Below, in pieces: positions 13,190 to 53,484 of a stretch of DNA of 64,000 bases. The notes beneath the pieces are model-generated. The model had not been told where the DNA came from. It saw only the letters and a program-made list of their open reading frames with translations, and ran no database searches. The translations under genes were made by a program, and so were the position numbers. This DNA is from Escherichia coli (GTDB lineage Bacteria > Pseudomonadota > Gammaproteobacteria > Enterobacterales > Enterobacteriaceae): the NCBI RefSeq assembly GCF_024223415.1, contig NZ_CP100500.1; one strand, 5' to 3'. How positions within the stretch are numbered: position 1 is the stretch's first letter; each line of letters begins with the position of its first letter.

Positions 13190-13645
13190 TTATTCAACAC
13201 CTGAATCCCCCGCAGCTTCTCTCCCCTTTATAAAACGCCCCTTCCGGAATCCAGACCGCTGCAGTGCACGACGAAGATGACCGTATACCGTCTTGTCATT
13301 CTGCCCCGTCTCTTCTGTAATCTCCGCAATACTTAAACCTCTGTAATACCGGTTCAGTACCGCTCTGCGCTCTTCCAGCGTCAACACACCTCCGGCCGCT
13401 CTCAGATTCAGCATCGACTTATTCAGAATACAGCAGGCCTCTCCGGTAAAAAGAATACGAACAATATCTGTATACTCATCATCACAGAATACAAAATAAT
13501 ATCTGAATGACCTGCCTGACTGCACCCTTCTTCTGTCTGATATGGCATCTTCTATATATCTGATTCGACTGCTTACGGTTCCAAATATCTCTCGCAGGGC
13601 TTTTTCAAAATAAATATCTCTCGTCGCCAGGATTATATCCAGCAT
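13190..13645 (-). CDS. Small protein with sigma-70 region-4 / LuxR-type HTH (putative transcriptional regulator)
   Basis: 151 aa; C-terminal LTLEERRAVLNRYYRGLSIAEITEETGQNDKTVYGHLRRALQRS resembles ECF sigma region 4. Confidence 0.5.
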   Translation of the reverse strand: MLDIILATRDIYFEKALREIFGTVSSRIRYIEDAISDRRRVQSGRSFRYYFVFCDDEYTDIVRILFTGEACCILNKSMLNLRAAGGVLTLEERRAVLNRYYRGLSIAEITEETGQNDKTVYGHLRRALQRSGFRKGRFIKGREAAGDSGVE

Positions 13646-13705: not shown

Positions 13706-14833
13706 TCAGAACTCAAAATTCACACCAGCATTCCACGATGCGGATGACCCACCTGCAGCAACTGCAACTTTTCCTGCCACATTCTCTGTGAAACGGTAGC
13801 CCACGCCCACCGCAATGGCCTGCTCATCACGGTAACCACCAACGGCTGCTGTCGCGTTAAATTTTCCAACACTGTATGGCTGGAAAAGACCGGCCAGTGC
13901 CGCGCTCTGGGCTGCACTCTCCCTTAACTCCTTCCGGTTCTCTTTAATCTGCTCCTGCATATTATTCATTCTCTCTGTCGCCATCTTCTGCCAGGCTTCC
14001 GTCAAATCCAGACGATGACTGTTATTCCTTATCGCTGCTGTATTTGAGGCTATTGCTGCATCCGTCTGCGCCCTGTTCTTCACAAGCACATCGCTGAGAT
14101 GTTCTGCCTGGCTTTTCACCTCGTTACGGACAGTACGCACACTGCTGTCTGTATATGTACGCGTCTCGTCCAGAACATCCGACTTCACCGCATCCGTGTA
14201 TTCCTGCGCAGAAGCCCTGGCAGCTGTAATATTACCGTTAAGTCTGTTTTCTGCCGATTCCACTCGACTCTTAGCATCAGCAACAGCATCACGGTAGACA
14301 GCTCCTATCTCACCGCGCAGGGCATCCCCCGACTCCCGTACAGCATCTGCAATGGCGTTGTCCATCTGTCCTTTTGTGGCCGCATCACTATCCTTAACAC
14401 CATCTGAAACATTTATAATCCGGCGGGTTTCCGGTGCACCATCAACTGAAAATCCATATCCTGAAGGACCGGCCCCTACAGAAAGTACATTGCTTTCTCC
14501 ATTCACCTGAGAGCCATACCCCAGAGCGACACTGTTGTCTGCATTAAAAACAGCTGTATTATTTCCCACAGCCATGGATTTATCCGCATCCCAAATTATT
14601 GCATCGGAACCAACAGCAAAGTTTTTTCCAGTAACACTACCATCACTGTTAAAATTTCCATTTCTGTCAACCACAGTTGCACTTTCAAGTGAATGAGTGC
14701 CATTATCAATCCAGATAATACCCGTCGATGACTCAGTAAGTGTTTTATGAGCCAAAGCCTGAGATGAGAGCAGCAGGGCCACACTCACTGCCAGCGCGCT
14801 TTTCTTTAAAAAAGCATCACGTCTTTTAAGCAT
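13706..14833 (-). CDS. Trimeric autotransporter adhesin with YadA-like C-terminal anchor (Eib-like immunoglobulin-binding protein family candidate)
   Basis: ATG at 14833 gives 375 aa with signal peptide MLKRRDAFLKKSALAVSVALLLSSQALA, coiled-coil stalk, and C-terminal anchor ending ..WNAGVNFEF. Confidence 0.7.
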   Translation of the reverse strand: MLKRRDAFLKKSALAVSVALLLSSQALAHKTLTESSTGIIWIDNGTHSLESATVVDRNGNFNSDGSVTGKNFAVGSDAIIWDADKSMAVGNNTAVFNADNSVALGYGSQVNGESNVLSVGAGPSGYGFSVDGAPETRRIINVSDGVKDSDAATKGQMDNAIADAVRESGDALRGEIGAVYRDAVADAKSRVESAENRLNGNITAARASAQEYTDAVKSDVLDETRTYTDSSVRTVRNEVKSQAEHLSDVLVKNRAQTDAAIASNTAAIRNNSHRLDLTEAWQKMATERMNNMQEQIKENRKELRESAAQSAALAGLFQPYSVGKFNATAAVGGYRDEQAIAVGVGYRFTENVAGKVAVAAGGSSASWNAGVNFEF

Positions 14834-15237
14834 TCTGTTATTCTCCTGTATTATTACTTCACCAGCCAGAACGGTAGTGCGGAGCAAAAATACAGTGATA
14901 AGAATCCTCTTTTATTAATTTAATAATATCAGGAATATTATTGTGTATAATATGCGCCCTCAATTTAAGCAGCAGAAAAGCAATGACGCGAAAATCATTA
15001 AAATACATAAAGATAAAACATCATAACTATAATTATAATAAGCGCGCTTATTTTAGCATCTGAACATTTAAAGTACTGCTATCACAAAACAATAAAAATC
15101 CTGGGTAATATCTCTGATGATTGAATGAGAAATTCACGATGTCTGGTGAGAATTCTGTTCAAAACGAGGAATGCAGACGTACACGTGGCACGCACCACGT
15201 GATCCGTAGAAAAGCCTCTTGTTACGAATTTCGTAAA

Positions 15238-17964: not shown

Positions 17965-18210
17965 TTACTTCACGCACGAAACTTTCGTAAACATATCTTC
18001 ACTCACCCACTGACCATAAAATCTCGGAGCTGATACTTTATACACAGTGCCGCTTTTCGTTTCTATTTTCCCTGTAAGATCTACCGTATAAGCTCGCTGT
18101 AAAACCCCGGGACTCAGCACACCGGTGCACCGGACTCTCTCCGTAACGGAACGGTACCCCGCGCAACCTGATACAAGAAACAGCAAAAAAGTGCAGACGA
18201 TTATTTTCAT
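17965..18210 (-). CDS. Small lipoprotein (signal peptide with LVSGC lipobox), possible Cor-like superinfection-exclusion protein
   Basis: 81 aa; MKIIVCTFLLFLVSGC lipoprotein signal; located between J-distal genes and side tail fibre. Confidence 0.55.
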   Translation of the reverse strand: MKIIVCTFLLFLVSGCAGYRSVTERVRCTGVLSPGVLQRAYTVDLTGKIETKSGTVYKVSAPRFYGQWVSEDMFTKVSCVK

Positions 18211-36110: not shown

Positions 36111-38022
36111 TCACTCCTCCGGACAGCTTCGCTGCCAGTTCTTTAAGGGTTGGCCGGGTCGTCTCTTCTTCCCGGGATTTTGCCAGTACAGCCAGATCAA
36201 GCTGCCAGCGTTGCACGGACACACGTAATGCCGCGTAGGCATACACCAGGCAGTCCAGCGCTTCGTTACGCCGCTTTTTGTTATCCCACAGCAGACGCAT
36301 CTTTCCTTTTTCCCACTTCTCCACAAGCTCTTCCGCGACCAGTTGCTGCGCCTCTGTCTGCGAAAAAATCTCCGGATCATCAGGAAAACGGATGGCATAC
36401 GACGTGGATTCATCCGCAGGCGTGGGAGCGGCTTTCATACGGGCATAGAGAATTTCTTTTGCGGTGTCCGTCCCCACTTCACACAGATACACGCCCCGCT
36501 GATTGCGGGTTTTTGGCATGGTGATCACCGGCTTGCCATAGACAGATGCGCCTTTTACCGGCAGCACCCGGAAAACACCGTGTTTTTTTGACCTCTGATA
36601 AACGATTTCGCCATCGATCCCCCCGATGTCCCAGCAGACACGGGAAATGGTCATTTCGGTTCCGTCTGCATGGCAGTATTTTTTGTTGATCGCCGCATCC
36701 ACACGTAACAGCGTCTCTTCCTCATCGGGACGTCCCATAATGATGATTTTATCCACCAGAAAGGCTTCCTCTCCCGGAGCCCATCCCCAGACATACATCT
36801 CAAAACGGTTTCGCTGCGAGTCAATGCCCGCCGTCAGATAAACCACCCGGGCAGGCACCGCCGCCGTGTAACGCACAACCTTATCCATCAGTACCTGGTG
36901 ATCGAGTTTTTCGCCCACGGCCTCTTCCCAGGTCTCGCCCAGCGTGGTGTTCACAAAGGTTTTCAGGCCGTTGGGATCTTTCAGTGCATCCAGCCAGTCA
37001 TAGACTATCTGTACCCAGGTGGTGAACGGACTGTACGCCGTCCAGATATGGAAAGTGATGGAGCGCGGCGGCGGAATTTCATCACCCCGGGCGCTGAAAA
37101 ACGTCAGACCGTCACGGGTCCACATCCCCGTGTTTTCACAGATCCACCGCCCGTTACTCTGGTCAAGCTCAGACTGATGGATCACACAGCCATGATGCTC
37201 ACAAAGGTAGAAAACACTTTCTGGCTTATTCTTCTCCCACTTAAGACCGAAAGCCGAGGCATCATCACCAAATTTCAGATACTGCTCCTCCCCACAGTGC
37301 GGACAGGGCACATAAAAACGCATGAAATGTGCCGACTCGTTAGCGGCTTTTTCGATCTGGCAGGAGCCTTTGATTTTAGGCGTCGAGCCGCGAATGGATT
37401 TTGGCCATACAGAGCCCTCAATACGCTTATCCCCCAGCAGGGTTGGCGAGCCCTCTTTTTCAACATCAGGTTCAAACGATGAGAGTTCGTCATAGCAGAC
37501 CACGTCCACGGATTTTTCACGGTAGTTTTTGGCGGCAGCGCCGCCCAGGCACCAGAAACCGACGCCCGATGAAAAGCGTTTCAGCGTGAGGGTATTATCA
37601 CGATGTTTACGACCCAGCCATGGGGAAAGGTCTTTCAGGCATGGCACGTCCCTAATCGTCGTCTCCACGTGAGACTTCATAAAATCTTCAGCGGCAGAAT
37701 CCGTGGGCTGAAAAAGCAGACTGTTTCGGGATTTATGCTCAATAAAATACCCGACCACCCCCAGCAACATCTTTGTATAACCAATACGGGCAGATTTAAT
37801 CAGATTAACAGTGCGGATCAGGTCATTACCCATACTGTTCATGATGGCGATCTGGAACGGCAGCGTTTTCCATTCGCCGTCACCGTATGAGGATTCTTTA
37901 GGCAGATAATAATACTGGTCAGCCCATTCAACTGCCGTCATCGGTACAACCCTGACCAGAGGCTGCAGCGCAACCGAAACGGCAGCCATCAGATTATTCA
38001 GTTGTTGCTCTGATATATTCAT
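36094..38022 (-). CDS. Terminase large subunit A
   Basis: ATG at 38022 gives MNISEQQLNNL..; lambda gpA-like over full length. Confidence 0.93.
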   Translation of the reverse strand: MNISEQQLNNLMAAVSVALQPLVRVVPMTAVEWADQYYYLPKESSYGDGEWKTLPFQIAIMNSMGNDLIRTVNLIKSARIGYTKMLLGVVGYFIEHKSRNSLLFQPTDSAAEDFMKSHVETTIRDVPCLKDLSPWLGRKHRDNTLTLKRFSSGVGFWCLGGAAAKNYREKSVDVVCYDELSSFEPDVEKEGSPTLLGDKRIEGSVWPKSIRGSTPKIKGSCQIEKAANESAHFMRFYVPCPHCGEEQYLKFGDDASAFGLKWEKNKPESVFYLCEHHGCVIHQSELDQSNGRWICENTGMWTRDGLTFFSARGDEIPPPRSITFHIWTAYSPFTTWVQIVYDWLDALKDPNGLKTFVNTTLGETWEEAVGEKLDHQVLMDKVVRYTAAVPARVVYLTAGIDSQRNRFEMYVWGWAPGEEAFLVDKIIIMGRPDEEETLLRVDAAINKKYCHADGTEMTISRVCWDIGGIDGEIVYQRSKKHGVFRVLPVKGASVYGKPVITMPKTRNQRGVYLCEVGTDTAKEILYARMKAAPTPADESTSYAIRFPDDPEIFSQTEAQQLVAEELVEKWEKGKMRLLWDNKKRRNEALDCLVYAYAALRVSVQRWQLDLAVLAKSREEETTRPTLKELAAKLSGGVNGYSR

Positions 38023-38503
38023 CCAGCAAATCCGGTAATTTATCCCCTGCCCGCGCACACTGATTTGCCCCCTTCGCAATAAGGGTTTTCAGATGGTCAA
38101 GATGGCGCGGTGTTAAATCAGGAAACTGTCGTTGCATGGATAAAGGGATGGAATCAAGCGTACTGGATAACGCCATTGCCAGCTTGCTGAGGGCAAAAAT
38201 ACAGAATCCGGTGTCAATAAGTTTTCCTTTTGACACCTCATTTTTTAACTGCTGTGTAACAGCCTGTTCTGCTGTCAGTTCCCATCTGGCAATAAGCAAT
38301 TTCTCCTCATAGTCGTCTTCGCTATCGCCATCAGGCACATCGTTTTTACTTCTTCTCAGATACGATATGTAAAAATCACGCCAGGCATCCAGATCCAGTT
38401 GCCCTCGCTTATTCGATATCGGGGCACCCGGCAATTTCTGCAGTCTGCGAAGCTGGCGATCGGTCAGACTCAAATGCCTGGCAACTTCAGTCTGCGTAGC
38501 CAC
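37994..38503 (-). CDS. Terminase small subunit Nu1
   Basis: 169 aa; N-terminal HTH, C-terminal ..CIFALSKLAMALSSTLDSIPLSMQRQFPDL.. like lambda Nu1. Confidence 0.88.
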   Translation of the reverse strand: MATQTEVARHLSLTDRQLRRLQKLPGAPISNKRGQLDLDAWRDFYISYLRRSKNDVPDGDSEDDYEEKLLIARWELTAEQAVTQQLKNEVSKGKLIDTGFCIFALSKLAMALSSTLDSIPLSMQRQFPDLTPRHLDHLKTLIAKGANQCARAGDKLPDLLDEYIRATTE

Positions 38504-38570
38504 TGTTCACCTCGCAAAAAATCTCCCCTCATGCGTTTTAAACATGCATCTTGCGAGCAACTTTATGCAA

Positions 38571-38667
38571 ACGCACGCATATGTCCGGTTTGTTTGTACA
38601 TTTTTTGCACATGTCCGGTTCGCAGAAAGCATGTTTTTATATTTTTCATATAGTTAACTTGCAGAGA
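38571..38667. promoter_or_regulatory. cosB: three terminase R-element repeats (ATGTCCGGTT x2 direct, x1 inverted)
   Basis: Repeats at 38571-38580, 38601-38610 and inverted at 38658-38667 between cosN and Nu1. Confidence 0.6.
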
Positions 38668-38715
38668 AACCGGACATGGATCCCGGAAAATTTTCATAAA
38701 TAGCGAAAACGCGCG

Positions 38716-38727
38716 AGGTCGACGCCC
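38716..38727 (-). other. cosN cohesive-end site (GGGCGTCGACCT, one mismatch to lambda GGGCGGCGACCT)
   Basis: Minus-strand ACGGGGCGTCGACCTCGCGCGTTTTCGCTATTTATGAAAATTTTCCGG closely matches remembered lambda cos. Confidence 0.8.
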
Positions 38728-38878
38728 CGTAACCTGTTGGATCGCCGGAAAGGACCCGAAAAAAACGAGAATAATTATCACTTACAGCAAGAATCGAATC
38801 TGATCTATTCTGATGCTTGCTATTATGTGCCGGCACAAGTGCGTCGTTTACCGTCATTTCACACAGAGGCATCATCAA

Positions 38879-39130: not shown

Positions 39131-39373
39131 CATCCGCATTTACCTGGTATTCCATGATGAGTTCACGCAGCGACTGATAGAGTAAGGAAAGATGGTTAGC
39201 AAAAGCAAAGGCGCATTGCCGCCGCATGCTGCAGGCATTGCAACAGACGAGAGCAGGTATTTTTGACCAGTTGGAAAACTGCCAGCATACTTTGCCCGAG
39301 CATATCGCCATCTCATCGGAAACCAGTGCAACTCTTATTCATCGGGTTACACCAGAGAAAAAGAAGAAATGAA

Positions 39374-39400
39374 CAGTGAGGCGTTGTGTGGCATACAACG
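39374..39400. terminator. Hairpin GGCGTTGTGTGGCATACAACGCC, likely terminator between convergent cargo genes
   Basis: 9-bp perfect stem with T-rich flank. Confidence 0.45.
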
Positions 39401-39494
39401 CCTTCTTCCATCATTTCTCGTCAGCCATGACAAAAATATAACCGCTGGCTCTTTCATTTTTCTCCTGCTTCCAGCCCCTCTCTACCTGGAAGCA

Positions 39495-39821
39495 TCAGGG
39501 ACGTGATGGCGTAAAGATAAATTGTCTCTTCACTCCCTGACGGGGACTATTCTTTTCAAATCTCCATTTCGCCATGGCCTTCACCACTTCATCACGAAAC
39601 AAATTATGAGGCTCTGAGCGGAGAAAAACGATCCGTGTCACAGTCCCGTCAGCACCAATATCGAACTTAACCTCAACCAGCCCCTTGATATAATTTGCTG
39701 CAGCATATTCCGGATATCGTGGATACACCGTCACTAATTGCCGGGGCTCATCAGCTTTTTGCTGCGAGCATCCCACTGCCAGGGCAGATAACAGAAAAAG
39801 TAGTGAAAGGCGTCTTTTCAT
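39495..39821 (-). CDS. Lipoprotein consisting of a TonB C-terminal-like domain
   Basis: ATG at 39821 (AGGA RBS) gives 108 aa: lipobox LAVGC then ..YPRYPEYAAANYIKGLVEVKFDIGADGTVTRIVFLRS.. resembling TonB_C. Confidence 0.6.
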   Translation of the reverse strand: MKRRLSLLFLLSALAVGCSQQKADEPRQLVTVYPRYPEYAAANYIKGLVEVKFDIGADGTVTRIVFLRSEPHNLFRDEVVKAMAKWRFEKNSPRQGVKRQFIFTPSRP

Positions 39822-40453
39822 TTTTATTCCTACGGGTCTTATTCTGACAATATATCCTGTGTTCCAGACTGCCACATCACCACATCCTGTGCCATTATCT
39901 GACTCACATTACATACATCGCATCAGGATACAGTAGTAGCACTTTCTGTAATACAGCTTCCGGTTTCTTCCACCATCGCACCGGACTGGCGAGCATGAGG
40001 GACAAACCCGCGAACCATAAACGCGGTAAAAACCCGGTGTGCATCGTTTTTGATTATTCCCGCACACTCGCGCAGAAGGAGTTCCCCGTCGGGCTACGGT
40101 CATGGTTAATGCGGGAATACAGCGACGATACAGCGCATGATGTGTCAGGCTTGAATACCTTTATCCGTTAAAAGGGATATCAGTTAAGTTATCCCGTGTA
40201 GGGTATAAGCCATTATCAAAGCCACTCTGTAGGGAGTGGCTTTTGTAATGGCAATAAAAAAGCCCCGCGAATGCGAGGCTAAATCCAGGTATTTTTAATG
40301 ACTGGCTCTTATCTCAACGCAGCCCCTTACCGCGCGCCAGATGCTCAATATCAAGCATCAGCAATGAGATGTTTAATCTGGATTCACTCCAGAAGTGATC
40401 ACCACCCTGTCTACAGAGCCAGATGTGAAGGATGATGAGTAAAATTATCGCTA

Positions 40454-40921
40454 TCATCGAAGGCATTGCGTCCTGATGTATTCCTGAAGCGTTCTCAGTG
40501 CTGTTTGGTCGCGGATAATTCCGTCCCGGACACCGAGAACGTTTCGTCCAGCAACTGGAGAGAGTTCGACGGTGGCATCATTGCCCATGCCGGAGGCGCT
40601 GGAGGTTTCGGCTGAGGATGGCACAGGGCATTTTCCTTTGACGAGCACCCTGCCACCATTATCAAGCTTGCGCCGAAGAGCATCATTTTCAGCTTTCGCA
40701 TCAGCTAACTCCTTCGTGTATTTTGCATCGAGCGCAGCAACATCACGCTGACGCTGCTGCATGTCAGCGATGGTGGCGGTCGCCTGCTTCAGCTCACTGA
40801 CTTTTTTATCACGTTGTTCTTTGTAGGCTATGGCGTTATCACGGTAATGATTGACCGCCAACGACAGGCAGACGATGATGCAGATAACCAGAGCATAAAT
40901 AATCGCGGCGACTCTGCTCAC
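40454..40921 (-). CDS. Spanin inner-membrane subunit Rz
   Basis: GTG at 40921 gives (M)[29 protein letters not shown].. matching lambda Rz. Confidence 0.88.
40495..40701 (-). CDS. Spanin outer-membrane lipoprotein Rz1 (embedded in Rz, +1 frame)
   Basis: [21 protein letters not shown].. with proline-rich PKPPAPPAW, like lambda Rz1. Confidence 0.85.
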
Positions 40922-41451
40922 TGATCTATCCCCCAACAGGCTAATGCGCTTTCCTGGTCACGACGAATAACCTGTCCATAGCAGTTATTTGAACGGATAC
41001 GGCAGTCACGCCCACCATCCTTTATCCACCAGCGAATCGCCTCGCAGGCGCCTTTTCGATCACCGGCATTAAGCCGCTTATAAAACGTCGACGGGAAACA
41101 CTTACCGGGGCCAATGTTATAGGGACAGAATGACGCAATACCCGCTTTCTGTGGTTCGGTCAGAGGTACTTTAATATTGCGCTCCACCCATGCCAGTGCC
41201 TTATCACGTTCAATAGCGTTAACCTGGTCGCATTTTTCCTTCGACAGCTTCATTCCGGGAAAAACGGGTTTTCCATCCACCATCGTGGCACCCCGACAGA
41301 TGGTCCAGATGCCGGACCCATCGCGGTATGCCGTTGTGTGGTTACCCTCTTTTTCGTCCAGAAACTGATCAAGTATCTGAGGAGCAGATGCGCCAGCACC
41401 AATCAGCGCCAGAACGGCAGCCGACAGGCCGTATCTGATTTTTGCGTTCAT
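40918..41451 (-). CDS. SAR endolysin (T4-lysozyme-like GH24 with signal-arrest-release N-terminus)
   Basis: 177 aa; N-terminal weakly hydrophobic Gly/Ala-rich segment; resembles phage 21 R-type lysozyme. Confidence 0.82.
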
Positions 41452-41574
41452 GTATATTTATCAGGATCTAAAGGTTTATAACCCTGGATATATCAGGTAT
41501 ATAATCCAGTACCAGCATGTCTCATAAACATACCCGTTCAGGAAAACCAAACGACAACAGATGAGGCTTCAGAA

Positions 41575-41952
41575 ATGAACAGTAAAGAAAATTTGCGCAG
41601 TAGATTTTTGCAACTAATGACAGAAAAAGTTAAATCAGCGCTACTTCCACTTATGGTGGATAATAACGAAGCAACGAGCAGCATCCTTGCAGACCCTTAC
41701 GGTAAACTCTCGCATAAAACGCTGGATATTATTATGAGTGCATTAACACCCCGTATGCTTCAACACCTGAAACAAGATATTAACGCATGGGTGAATGAAG
41801 AATTGAGCCCCCCCTGTTCATGGGACAGACATTATGCATGGCAGCAAAAAATGAGGATTTTCAATTCATTATCACTAAAGTTCAGAGAACCGAAACAGCG
41901 TCCCTTCCCTCTGGAATCAGACAAAAAACAACCTGATCCCACAGGCCCGTAA
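41575..41952 (+). CDS. Hypothetical protein encoded on opposite strand between holin and endolysin
   Basis: 125 aa ORF with GAGG RBS and AT-rich promoter-like upstream; inverted-repeat hairpin downstream. Confidence 0.55.
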   Translation: MNSKENLRSRFLQLMTEKVKSALLPLMVDNNEATSSILADPYGKLSHKTLDIIMSALTPRMLQHLKQDINAWVNEELSPPCSWDRHYAWQQKMRIFNSLSLKFREPKQRPFPLESDKKQPDPTGP

Positions 41953-42108
41953 TATTTTGAATACCGTGATTATTGATATCACAATGAAAGCTATTCCGCA
42001 CAGTTATGCCCTGCTCCCCACGGGGCATGCCTCATGAAACGTTCCGGGCGTTTCATGTTCCCGGATTTTGTTAAAAGGTATATTATCCCCTCACTCCCGG
42101 GATATTCG

Positions 42109-42381
42109 TCATATTTCTTTTGGTGCCTTTTTCGCAATCTCAGCCACAGCATGTGCCGTAGCCGGAACATTACCGGCATTAGTTCGTTCCAGAATTTCGA
42201 GCAATATGCGGGTTCGTTTTTCCTGCTCCCGTTTGTTAAGGCGATAAGTAAGAACGCCAAGAATGATACTGAACGCCACGCCGATAATAAATCCCCAATC
42301 CTGCAGTGACAGGCTGGCAAAGAACGCAACAAGTCCTGCGCTGCCGTATGCAGCGTTACTGTATCGTTCGTCCATTCTCAT
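42109..42381 (-). CDS. Pinholin-like class II holin
   Basis: 90 aa, two TM segments and charged C-terminus; pattern similar to S21; paired with SAR endolysin. Confidence 0.72.
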   Translation of the reverse strand: MRMDERYSNAAYGSAGLVAFFASLSLQDWGFIIGVAFSIILGVLTYRLNKREQEKRTRILLEILERTNAGNVPATAHAVAEIAKKAPKEI

Positions 42382-42796: not shown

Positions 42797-42873
42797 TGGA
42801 CCGCCACCGGGGACTCGAACCTCGCACACTCAACTTAAAGGGTTGACGCTCTTTCCTGATGAGCTAGTGGCGG
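42797..42873 (-). tRNA. tRNA-like gene with non-canonical anticodon loop CCUUUAA (by analogy to Stx-phage argN/argO position)
   Basis: Cloverleaf with 7-bp acceptor, GCTC/GAGC D-stem, TTCGAGT T-loop, CCA encoded; C33 and one T-stem mismatch. Confidence 0.55.
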
Positions 42874-42874
42874 T

Positions 42875-42950
42875 TGGTGGCCCTTGCTGGATTTGAACCA
42901 GCGACCTGGCGATTATGAGTCGCTCGCTCTCACCACTGAGCTAAAGGGCC
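42875..42950 (-). tRNA. tRNA with CAU anticodon (ileX/ileZ-like tRNA-Ile2 or Met)
   Basis: GGCCCTTTAGCTCAGTGGTGAGAGCGAGCGACTCATAATCGCCAGGTCGCTGGTTCAAATCCAGCAAGGGCCACCA folds as canonical cloverleaf. Confidence 0.8.
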
Positions 42951-46270: not shown

Positions 46271-46426
46271 TTACTCCTCAGGTTCGTAAGCTGTGAAGAC
46301 AGCGACCTCCGTCTGGCCGGTTCGGATTCGTACCTCGCAGAGGTCTTTCCTCGTTACCAGTGCCGTCACAATGACGGTAATACAGATGACGATCAGGGCG
46401 ACTAACATCGCCTTTTGCTGCTTCAT
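46271..46426 (-). CDS. hok: Hok/Gef family type I toxin
   Basis: 51 aa MKQQKAMLVALIVICITVIVTALVTRKDLCEVRIRTGQTEVAVFTAYEPEE, nearly identical to remembered HokD/RelF. Confidence 0.88.
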   Translation of the reverse strand: MKQQKAMLVALIVICITVIVTALVTRKDLCEVRIRTGQTEVAVFTAYEPEE

Positions 46427-46717
46427 AGCCTGCTTCTCCTTGCCTTTCGGCACGTAAGAGGCTAACCTAGATTTGCCGTTCATAGATTGAGCCTCAGATT
46501 AATGTTAAGCGTCTTGCCGGACGCGTAATGTTAACTGGGGCTTTTCTCTATCTGCCTTTTGGGGTTCATGCCTGAGACAGATAGCCTCAAGCACCCGCTG
46601 CAATTCTACTTAACTCTCCTTTTCCCGCAAACCATTTTTATCCCCAGCGGCAAATCGAATACACCACCAGCGCCACCGCCATCGCAATTCCTACCGTTGT
46701 GAATGCTTCAGGCCAGG

Positions 46718-52675: not shown

Positions 52676-53292
52676 AACCAATTTCCTCTCGGGTAACAGA
52701 CCCCTCAGAGGATACCACCTCGCCTGACGTGGTTAAAAGCAGGCACACAACACGAAAGCGCACGGCGAGGTAGCTGGTTCATATATAGCCTGTCGTTAAA
52801 TTTTCGTCGACCGTGCGCTTCCGGTTGTGGCACTCCGCGAAATGGCGCGGCGGTAAGCATGGCGGGGTTCCCTTCCCCTTGAGGACACCGGGTTGTCAGG
52901 TTGACCATGCGCCTGAGTGACAACCCCGCTGCAACGCCCTCTGTTATCAATTTTCTGGTGACGTTTGGCGGTATCAGTTTTACTCCGTGACTGCTCTGCC
53001 GCCCTTTTTAAAGTGAATTTTGTGATGTGGTGAATGCGGCTCAGCGCACGCGGAACAGTTAAAACCAAAAACAGAGTTATGGGTGGATTCTCTGTATCCG
53101 GCGTTAATTGTTAACTGGTTAACGTCACCTGGAGGCACCTGGCACCGCATCAACAAAGTTCACTTCGGTGATGAAAGGTAAGAGAAAATGTTGAATGTAG
53201 CTATTGAAAACCAGTACGGGTGGAATTATAGTGCACCTGCACCTCATAAAACGGGTGCCGGGCGTGGAAACCCGAAAGTTACTCGAGCGCAT

Positions 53293-53316
53293 AACCGCGC
53301 CGAAGCGGTTTTTTTA
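53293..53316 (+). terminator. Intrinsic terminator in leftward early leader (tL-like)
   Basis: AACCGC-GCCGAA-GCGGTT followed by T7. Confidence 0.6.
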
Positions 53317-53484
53317 TGCGTAATGCACAGCCACATTCAGATAATGGTGGGGCGTGCAGGGCAGCTGCAAGGCTGGCCGGGTTCTCGAGTGACCGGTATT
53401 TCCACCCCTGTACGTCTCGCCACCCTTATGGTCGTGGAAAGCCTCGGTGGTGAGTTAATTAACTTAACACTTGAGGATGCCATC

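Follow-up and report, generated by a model that had tools for sequence, protein, structure and literature searches.

The window analyzed here, a 64,000-nucleotide stretch of Escherichia coli DNA, lies in a lambdoid prophage and is 100% identical to several sequenced strains. The late operon occupies the minus strand and runs in the order holin, endolysin, Rz/Rz1, a 50-aa ORF, a terminator-like hairpin, a gene for a small lipoprotein with a TonB C-terminal (TonB_C) domain, further small ORFs and terminase (Table 1). In the window, ~38728 matches the right cohesive end of phage 21, which places cos ~0.77 kb past the stop codon of the TonB_C gene. With the lysis genes on its upstream side, the gene thus sits between the lysis cassette and cos, as a sequence-only reading of the locus had described. 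The same slot—after the lysis cassette, before the packaging genes and on the same strand—was occupied in four phage backgrounds, namely 21-like phages, the Stx1a/JLK-2012 phages with their HNH-type packaging, a metagenomic HK97-like phage (in which the homologue sits between a DUF2514 spanin and HNH/terminase genes) and a Klebsiella phage. The slot was constant in every phage case, although the packaging modules differ. The window does not contain lambda bor; phage 21 has bor and the TonB_C gene side by side.

Table 1 Features of the TonB_C locus, numbered from the first nucleotide of the window.
Feature	Position	Strand	Basis or remark
Nu1-like terminase small subunit	37994-38503	-	large subunit gene next
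cos region plus Nu1-like terminase small subunit	37994-38728	-	phage 21 right end; ORF match
Downstream 8-bp hairpin, GGCGTTGT-7 nt-ACAACGCC	39380-39402	-	sequence
TonB_C lipoprotein CDS, 108 aa	39495-39821	-	ORF translation; profile and BLASTP matches; dN/dS
TonB C-terminal domain, residues 26-103, beta-alpha-beta-beta-alpha-beta	39513-39746	-	Pfam, AlphaFold, Foldseek
Lipoprotein signal peptide (residues 1-17) plus Cys18, the predicted lipidation site	39768-39821	-	read from sequence
Shine-Dalgarno sequence AGGA	39828-39831	-	6 nt before ATG
Conserved structured non-coding RNA, ~172 nt, late-gene sense	39960-40131	-	alignments, covariation, RNAalifold
Intrinsic-terminator-like hairpin plus T-run, between lysis cassette and TonB_C gene	40261-40280	-	terminator scan
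Lysis cassette, complete	40454-42381	-	PHROG matches of ORFs
Rz	40454-40936	-	phrog_13, E 9e-73
Rz1, embedded in Rz	40495-40701	-	phrog_3198, E 8e-26
Endolysin	40918-41451	-	
Holin	42109-42381	-	

The TonB_C gene starts with an ATG at 39821, ends with a stop codon at 39497-39495 and translates to MKRRLSLLFLLSALAVGCSQQKADEPRQLVTVYPRYPEYAAANYIKGLVEVKFDIGADGTVTRIVFLRSEPHNLFRDEVVKAMAKWRFEKNSPRQGVKRQFIFTPSRP. A longer reading from a GTG at 39875 is unlikely, because the ATG start already yields a canonical signal peptide. The gene has a ribosome-binding site of its own, as had been proposed, and comparison of both alleles revealed that the sequence GGAAT.AAAATG around this site and the start codon is kept in an allele that is only 70% identical.

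The precursor opens with MKRRLSLLFLLSALAVGC, followed by SQQ. Its signal peptide is laid out as MKRR-LSLLFLLSALAVG-C18, with a basic n-region (K2, R3 and R4), an h-region devoid of charge and a lipobox that reads L-A-V-G-C, in which the cysteine falls at position 18—that is, within positions 15-35, where it is expected in lipoproteins—and is followed by Ser at +2. The 108-aa lipoprotein with an LAVGC lipobox that the sequence-only reading had called is therefore found as described. In the alignment of small homologues, 13 carried a lipobox with a +2 residue other than Asp, the remaining rows having no lipobox; none of the lipobox-bearing homologues had Asp at this position, and the arrangement was retained in relatives as distant as ~35% identity. 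Under the Lol-avoidance rule, Asp at +2 causes retention in the inner membrane, and lipoproteins without it are sorted to the outer membrane. Given Ser at +2 and no Lol-avoidance Asp, outer-membrane sorting is expected, and we infer that the mature protein would reside in the inner leaflet of the outer membrane. Compared with the earlier description as ‘periplasm-anchored’, the outer membrane is the more specific prediction.

Past Cys18, the protein consists of a TonB C-terminal domain. Pfam TonB_C (PF03544) matched residues 33-102 (i-E 3.2e-13, 50.4 bits) and NCBIfam TIGR01352, with a cut-off of 27.1 bits, scored 48.6, whereas the full-length TonB equivalogs of NCBIfam remained below their cut-offs (46-67 bits versus 265-448). 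BLASTP aligned residues 23-103 with residues 150-230 of E. coli TonB (41% identity, gap-free, E 3e-19), and the best matches of a PDB sequence search were all TonB C-terminal domains (E ~1e-14). An AlphaFold model computed with 25 homologues was compact, globular and alpha/beta, with a pLDDT of 96-98 over the domain. Foldseek superposed this model on 1u07_A, a 92-residue TonB crystal structure, and on 2gsk_B, TonB bound to BtuB, with an rmsd of 1.0 Å and target TM scores of 0.90-0.92; the rmsd to 2grx_C, TonB in the FhuA complex, was 1.2 Å. The top 11 matches were TonB/FusB C-terminal domains throughout (rmsd 0.7-2.8 Å), and at E < 0.1 the fold search returned the TonB/TolA C-terminal-domain fold and no other. 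Profiles, sequence matches and predicted structure hence all agree with the resemblance to the TonB C-terminal domain that had been suspected from the letters alone.

In the BLASTP and PDB alignments, residue n of the phage protein corresponds to TonB n+127. On this numbering, the phage protein retains TonB Y163/P164 (as Y36/P37), F180 (F53), G186 (G59), F202 (F75), W213 (W86) and F230 (F103), and Y215 is replaced by a phenylalanine (F88). The hydrophobic-core residues were conserved in the homologue alignment, and strand beta3 (residues 94-103) is complete. The domain (TonB ~150-239; 1u07, 1xx3, 2gsk, 2grx) thus shares with that of E. coli TonB the Pfam/TIGRFAM assignment, the fold to within 1.0-1.2 Å, the YP motif, the conserved aromatics and the strand that pairs with Ton boxes. 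It differs in that TonB Q160 and R166, where Ton-box suppressor mutations and the contact with FhuA Glu56 map, are both tyrosines, and in that beta3 starts with basic residues (K98, R99) where TonB has Val-Val. The phage protein further ends five residues past beta3: the final nine residues of TonB are swapped for a different five-residue tail, four shorter, and the TonB 235-239 strand, which mediates the 1u07-type dimer, is absent. At the other end, a cleavable 17-residue lipoprotein signal peptide takes the place of the TonB transmembrane anchor, and only ~8 residues, with no Pro-rich spacer, separate Cys18 from the domain. The protein is a TonB C-terminal domain alone, fused to a lipoprotein export signal and predicted to be lipid-anchored to the opposite membrane; it is not a TonB proper, as the anchor and the proline-rich rod are both missing.

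We next consider how widespread the gene is and what it has been called. The classical phage 21 encodes the protein at 96% identity under the annotation ‘TonB C-terminal domain protein’; the copy in ev017 is annotated ‘Partial tonB-like membrane protein encoded within prophage CP-933N’, that in Perceval ‘TonB fragment’, and three ECOR-derived phages have the gene as well. PGAP names it ‘TonB family protein’. The 70%-identical allele was found in four Stx1a-converting phages, in Lys8385Vzw and in JLK-2012, and a relative with 41% identity in a Klebsiella phage. Of 5426 complete E. coli genomes, at least 1220 (at least 22%) contained ≥80% of the 701-bp locus. The exact protein was encoded on at least 999 contigs, under generic names throughout (‘TonB family protein’, ‘energy transducer TonB’), and hundreds of cluster members kept the full length. 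Among otherwise similar phages, the gene is present or absent at one fixed site, which fits ‘extra DNA’. Between the allele in the window and the 70%-identical one, dS was ~1.5 and dN 0.18, giving a dN/dS of 0.12 (0.10-0.11 for the mature domain alone); since this ratio is so low, the comparison indicates a working protein under selection rather than a ‘TonB fragment’.

In PHROGs, the protein belongs to phrog_1267 (E 2e-40), a family labeled ‘Rz-like spanin’. We rejected a spanin identity: the domain is globular alpha/beta, with the hallmarks of neither an inner-membrane coiled-coil i-spanin nor a short Pro-rich o-spanin, and a complete Rz/Rz1 pair is already encoded upstream. The label looks inherited from the neighboring genes, and it is spreading from PHROGs into phage annotations. 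PADLOC returned no match for the protein. In the full texts searched, a collection mostly without subscription journals, we found no published work on its function, an absence that is not proof; in a 2024 review of superinfection exclusion, TonB comes up solely as the supplier of energy to FhuA. The earlier suggestion that the function is uncharacterized accordingly survives, and the gene itself has been noticed: it is annotated in phage 21, in CP-933N-derived annotation and by PGAP, and has a family of its own in phrog_1267. The protein is known to databases, yet functionally unstudied.

With respect to expression, a search for sigma-70-like promoters on the gene’s strand between 38400 and 40600 found none. 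Inspection by eye of the 140 nt upstream, including a check for a Fur box around GATAATGG, revealed nothing convincing, and the islands conserved between both alleles contained no −35/−10 pair at conserved spacing. The hairpin downstream of the gene, which the sequence-only reading had pointed out, is present; it lacks, however, the adjacent U-run of a terminator on the gene’s strand. The opposite strand is T-rich, and the hairpin may be the terminator of a convergent small ORF at 39226-39372 on the plus strand. Given the late-operon direction, the terminator upstream and the lack of a detectable sigma-70 promoter, the gene may be expressed only late, by Q-antiterminated transcription in induced cells, with no expression in the lysogen. 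The missing promoter together with a strong upstream terminator leaves expression in the lysogen, which a Cor-like conversion would need, unsupported. Late-only expression would suit protection of the producer cell or a late envelope role better than a conversion of that kind. As Juhala et al. 2000 define it, a moron has its own promoter upstream and a terminator downstream, which allow the repressed prophage to express it.

The ~180 nt upstream of the gene were more conserved than the gene itself in the alignment of the two alleles, and a structured RNA element lies in this region, 138 nt upstream of the ATG. In lambdoid phages of E. coli, the TonB_C gene, where present, always comes after the element with constant spacing. 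The element was present in ~500 phage records, comprising lambda/HK630, phage 21, mEp460, many Stx1 and Stx2 phages and phages of Salmonella and Shigella, whether or not they also carry bor or the TonB_C gene. A role as a private leader of the TonB_C gene was rejected, given that most of these records are without the gene; upstream of the distant TonB_C homologues, the element was absent. Indels of 1, 9 and 17 nt led us to reject a coding block as well. Across 68 distinct copies, a four-helix structure in late-gene sense had 97.6% of its cells paired, as compared to 33-57% in slid controls, and eight pairs changed on both sides, a number that 0 of 500 shuffles reached. One-sided changes were mostly U-A to U-G or C-G to U-G, implying that pairing is preserved only on the late-sense strand; RNAalifold likewise returned −24.9 kcal/mol for this strand and −10.3 for the other. 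A search of Rfam 15, at the gathering threshold and at E values up to 5, returned no relevant family. The AgvB/AsxR anti-sRNA site of O157 prophages was considered and rejected, as these RNAs lie just 3’ of pR’.

A survey of gene context covered the 96 loci with enough flanking sequence. Where bor was present (25 loci), it was always upstream of the RNA element and on the opposite strand; where the TonB_C gene was present (15 loci), it always lay on the same strand, 216-250 nt beyond the search pattern. At the other loci, the gene for the terminase small subunit starts 100-300 nt downstream of the element. The element appears to be a cis-acting RNA, so far undescribed, that belongs to the late transcript of lambdoid phages and sits at the lysis-packaging junction; it also marks the insertion point of the TonB_C gene.

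What might a TonB docking domain do beneath the outer membrane? TonB_C domains bind the Ton box as an added strand beside beta3 (2gsk, 2grx). The best explanation of the architecture, to which we assign a probability of roughly 40%, is that a TonB_C domain held at the outer membrane would compete with TonB for Ton boxes and thereby damp TonB-dependent uptake. The 8-14 tether residues would hold a free TonB C-terminal domain just beneath the outer membrane, where the Ton boxes of FhuA, BtuB, FepA, Cir and others emerge. The edge strand beta3 could then pair with the exposed Ton boxes of transporters, and perhaps with those of group B colicins, and the bound decoy would keep the real TonB away. 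Lacking the membrane anchor and the proline-rich rod of TonB, the phage protein has no way of coupling to ExbB/ExbD and delivers no energy, which makes a competitive action the most likely one. Affected processes would include irreversible adsorption or entry of T1/phi80-type phages and the uptake of colicins B, D, Ia, Ib and M and of some microcins, at the cost of reduced siderophore and B12 uptake.

Published precedents for such interference exist. In PMC9841981, TonB is described as scarce relative to its transporters. The same source cites reports that an overexpressed periplasmic TonB domain inhibits iron transport through FhuA and FecA (Howard et al. 2001, J Bacteriol 183:5885) and that a Ton-box pentapeptide blocks phi80 and colicins (Tuckman and Osburne 1992). 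The phage lipoproteins Llp and Cor are acylated outer-membrane proteins that act at the periplasmic face of FhuA; binding of Llp overlaps that of TonB on this transporter and Llp needs its acyl anchor (bioRxiv 10.64898/2026.03.26.714494). In an AlphaFold fusion of the mature domain, a 31-aa GS linker and FhuA residues 1-20, modeled from a matched alignment and without a TonB control, the Ton box had a pLDDT of 54-60 and formed no strand. With Q160 and R166 replaced and a basic start of beta3, the preference for Ton boxes may differ from that of TonB.

Other roles could be built on the same fold. The free domain might heterodimerize with the C-terminal domain of host TonB, or target ExbD, and so trap TonB at the outer membrane. 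The loss of TonB-dependent uptake would be the same, brought about through another contact. Its fold is indeed that of the TonB C-terminal domain, which crystallizes as dimers (1u07 and 1ihr were among the matches), and its conserved hydrophobic core would be in keeping with this; the protein stops five residues after beta3, however, without the 235-239 strand on which the 1u07-type dimer relies. Less protein would be needed for titration, given that TonB is far scarcer than the transporters according to PMC9841981. Overall, we consider such trapping improbable. A late function in the envelope, with the domain binding a Ton-box-like strand elsewhere (in a phage protein, an outer-membrane protein or peptidoglycan) and contributing to lysis timing, tethering or progeny release, would account for a gene that always directly follows the lysis cassette in late-operon orientation and for which no own promoter was found on its strand between 38400 and 40600. 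The departures from TonB at Q160, R166 and the start of beta3 would be compatible with a different ligand, and the ‘Rz-like spanin’ label points the same way. Yet that label is apparently inherited, a full Rz/Rz1 pair is present already, the compact globular domain resembles neither type of spanin, and the slot also holds bor and unrelated cargo, pointing to a hotspot for insertions instead of a role in lysis; a late envelope role thus appears unlikely.

Lysogenic conversion is a further candidate: mild throttling of TonB-dependent iron uptake could derepress the Fur regulon, perhaps including an iron-regulated stx1, or the protein could protect the host in the gut against colicins and microcins. 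The occurrence of the 70%-identical allele in four Stx1a-converting phages, Lys8385Vzw and JLK-2012, the adjacency to bor in phage 21 and a frequency typical of conversion genes (≥1220 of 5426 complete genomes) all speak for it. Against these stand the failure to find either a promoter or a Fur box, the occurrence of the allele family in non-Stx phages too and the speculative nature of the stx1 link, so that we regard conversion as quite unlikely. That the gene is a decaying, functionless piece of a captured tonB is suggested by the ‘partial tonB-like’ and ‘TonB fragment’ annotations in ev017 and Perceval and by its covering just the final third of TonB. Decay is nonetheless hard to reconcile with a dedicated lipoprotein signal peptide where TonB has its anchor, with a confident and compact AlphaFold model, with a full length that hundreds of cluster members and at least 999 contigs retain, and with homologues of the same architecture at 35-45% identity. 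On the strength of a dN/dS of 0.12 at near-saturated dS we rejected this reading, leaving it only a very slight chance.

Competition for Ton boxes, our preferred explanation, can be set beside several known systems. The closest functional analogue is the artificial periplasmic TonB fragment (Howard, Herrmann, Stratilo and Braun 2001, as described in PMC9841981), likewise a TonB domain in the periplasm without an energy-coupling anchor; those fragments were soluble, overexpressed laboratory constructs, whereas the phage protein is natural, diverged, selected and predicted to be lipid-anchored. Cor (of phi80, N15, HK022 and mEp167) and Llp (of T5) are small phage lipoproteins as well, anchored in the outer membrane’s inner leaflet and acting at the periplasmic face of a TonB-dependent transporter. 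They have no sequence kinship with the TonB_C lipoprotein, which matched neither of the Cor families phrog_1119 and NF047972, and share a fold of their own (bioRxiv 10.64898/2026.03.26.714494). Cor and Llp are specific to FhuA, with Llp acting allosterically, while a mimic of TonB would be expected to act on any Ton box; and Llp is made early after infection (bioRxiv 10.64898/2026.03.26.714494), whereas the TonB_C lipoprotein may be late. If the competition model holds, the protein would represent a TonB-mimicking variant of the exclusion lipoproteins of the Cor/Llp type.

The Bor/Iss moron of lambda shares the Rz-cos neighborhood and is another small outer-membrane lipoprotein, unrelated in sequence. 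The bor gene precedes the conserved RNA element and is encoded on the other strand, as opposed to the TonB_C gene, which follows the element on the late strand; in HK630, bor has an annotated upstream promoter. Bor is linked to serum resistance, not to TonB.

The evidence presented here establishes a real, widespread and selected phage protein, for which a plausible mechanism can be proposed. On the preferred explanation, the protein would jam TonB-dependent uptake, affecting iron, some phages and some colicins. Should the competition model prove true, it would constitute a new exclusion principle, in which a phage copy of the TonB docking domain shuts a whole entry class, in contrast to Cor and Llp, which block one receptor each. 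Because the gene is common (≥22% of complete E. coli genomes, phage 21, Stx1a phages), it could then influence the host range of FhuA- or TonB-dependent phages in phage therapy, the ecology of colicins and microcins, how well siderophore-antibiotic conjugates work, and virulence under iron control. In its most far-reaching form, the proposal is that about one-fifth of E. coli strains carry an outer-membrane-tethered mimic of the TonB docking domain that jams all TonB-dependent transporters generically, so that a single protein would shield the cell from TonB-dependent phages, group B colicins and microcins, with iron limitation that may feed Fur-regulated virulence genes such as stx1 in Stx1 phages; this wider form is possible, albeit doubtful.

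The combination of a lipobox with a TonB_C domain extends beyond phages. An exhaustive profile-free search returned more proteins of ~110 aa with this layout, at 35-45% identity, and some of these are chromosomal, lying beside ahpC/GST housekeeping genes; one close relative came from Gibbsiella greigii. These TonB_C-only lipoproteins of Enterobacterales (for example, the G. greigii hypothetical protein, P0219/P0041) comprise a lipobox and a single TonB_C domain in 107-133 aa, are 36-45% identical to the phage protein, sit among housekeeping genes (ahpC, GST, Usp, PTS) outside phages and are equally uncharacterized. The motifs YP.YA.AN, LFD and KW.FE are common to both groups. Because such proteins occur in plain chromosomal contexts, the architecture is not a phage invention and has some role beyond phages.

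Elsewhere in the window, at 17965-18210, this prophage also encodes a Cor-like lipoprotein, for which tblastn gave no match in the phage collection. Genes for exclusion at the outer membrane therefore belong to the repertoire of this prophage.

Where its lysis cassette gives way to the packaging genes, the prophage carries a conserved non-coding element, which occupies this junction in about 500 lambdoid phage records, including lambda, and is also present at eight of the collected loci (L001, L013 and L015-L020) and at about 120 IMG/VR loci. The element adopts a four-helix RNA structure (97.6% paired, eight covarying pairs) that is supported on the late-gene strand only, with strand-specific G-U changes; Rfam holds no family for it. 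Its neighbours are bor on the upstream side and the gene for the TonB_C lipoprotein on the downstream side.

Features of the prophage outside the TonB_C lipoprotein gene
Feature	Position	Strand	Remarks
Conserved non-coding element, ~172 nt	39960-40131	minus	between lysis cassette and packaging genes
81-aa lipoprotein, lipobox VSGC	17965-18210	minus	directly downstream of tail-tip J gene
Side-tail-fibre-like protein, 601 aa	16087-17892	minus	
393-aa protein	13706-14887	minus	at prophage end; matches phage adhesin-type families phrog_9547 and phrog_17426
151-aa protein	13190-13645	minus	adjoins 393-aa protein; weak match to sigma-factor family
Two tRNA genes	42800-42950	minus	upstream of holin
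Rfam matches, in order of listing	46421-46596; 52953-53004; 53239-53315; 53340-53427	minus; plus; plus; plus	

Two PHROG families matched in this region, phrog_1267 (by the TonB_C lipoprotein, 39495-39821) and phrog_6954 (by a spurious ORF at 39909-40103 that overlies the RNA element), both carry the description ‘Rz-like spanin’. This label seems to derive from the neighbouring genes, and the deposited phage record NC_049922 already bears it over this region.

With respect to relatives of the TonB_C protein, proteins of 113-133 aa consisting only of a TonB_C domain behind a lipobox were found on metagenomic contigs (L006-L008 and L010-L012) and in Gibbsiella greigii (P0219), sharing 36-42% identity with the phage protein. 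Their genes have housekeeping neighbours on the chromosome (ahpC, GST, Usp, PTS EIIB). These chromosomal proteins form an uncharacterised bacterial family, in which the phage gene may have had its origin.

The 81-aa lipoprotein resembles Cor, the phage exclusion lipoprotein acting on FhuA, across its full length, yet remains sub-threshold, scoring 28.4 bits against the NCBIfam Cor family NF047972 (cut-off 31) and an E value of 8e-7 against its PHROG counterpart, phrog_1119. Neither Pfam nor a tblastn search of 50,697 phage records returned a match. It probably belongs, as a divergent member, to the exclusion proteins that block receptors.

Collagen-like repeats ([16 protein letters not shown]) account for most of the side-tail-fibre-like protein. 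The 393-aa and 151-aa genes are probably cargo.

Rfam matches above the gathering score inside the prophage comprised the sok antitoxin RNA (112 bits), DicF (77 bits), isrK (67 bits) and the C4 antisense RNA (74 bits). The two tRNA genes occupy the same post-late-promoter slot as tRNA-Asn and tRNA-Thr in phage 21.
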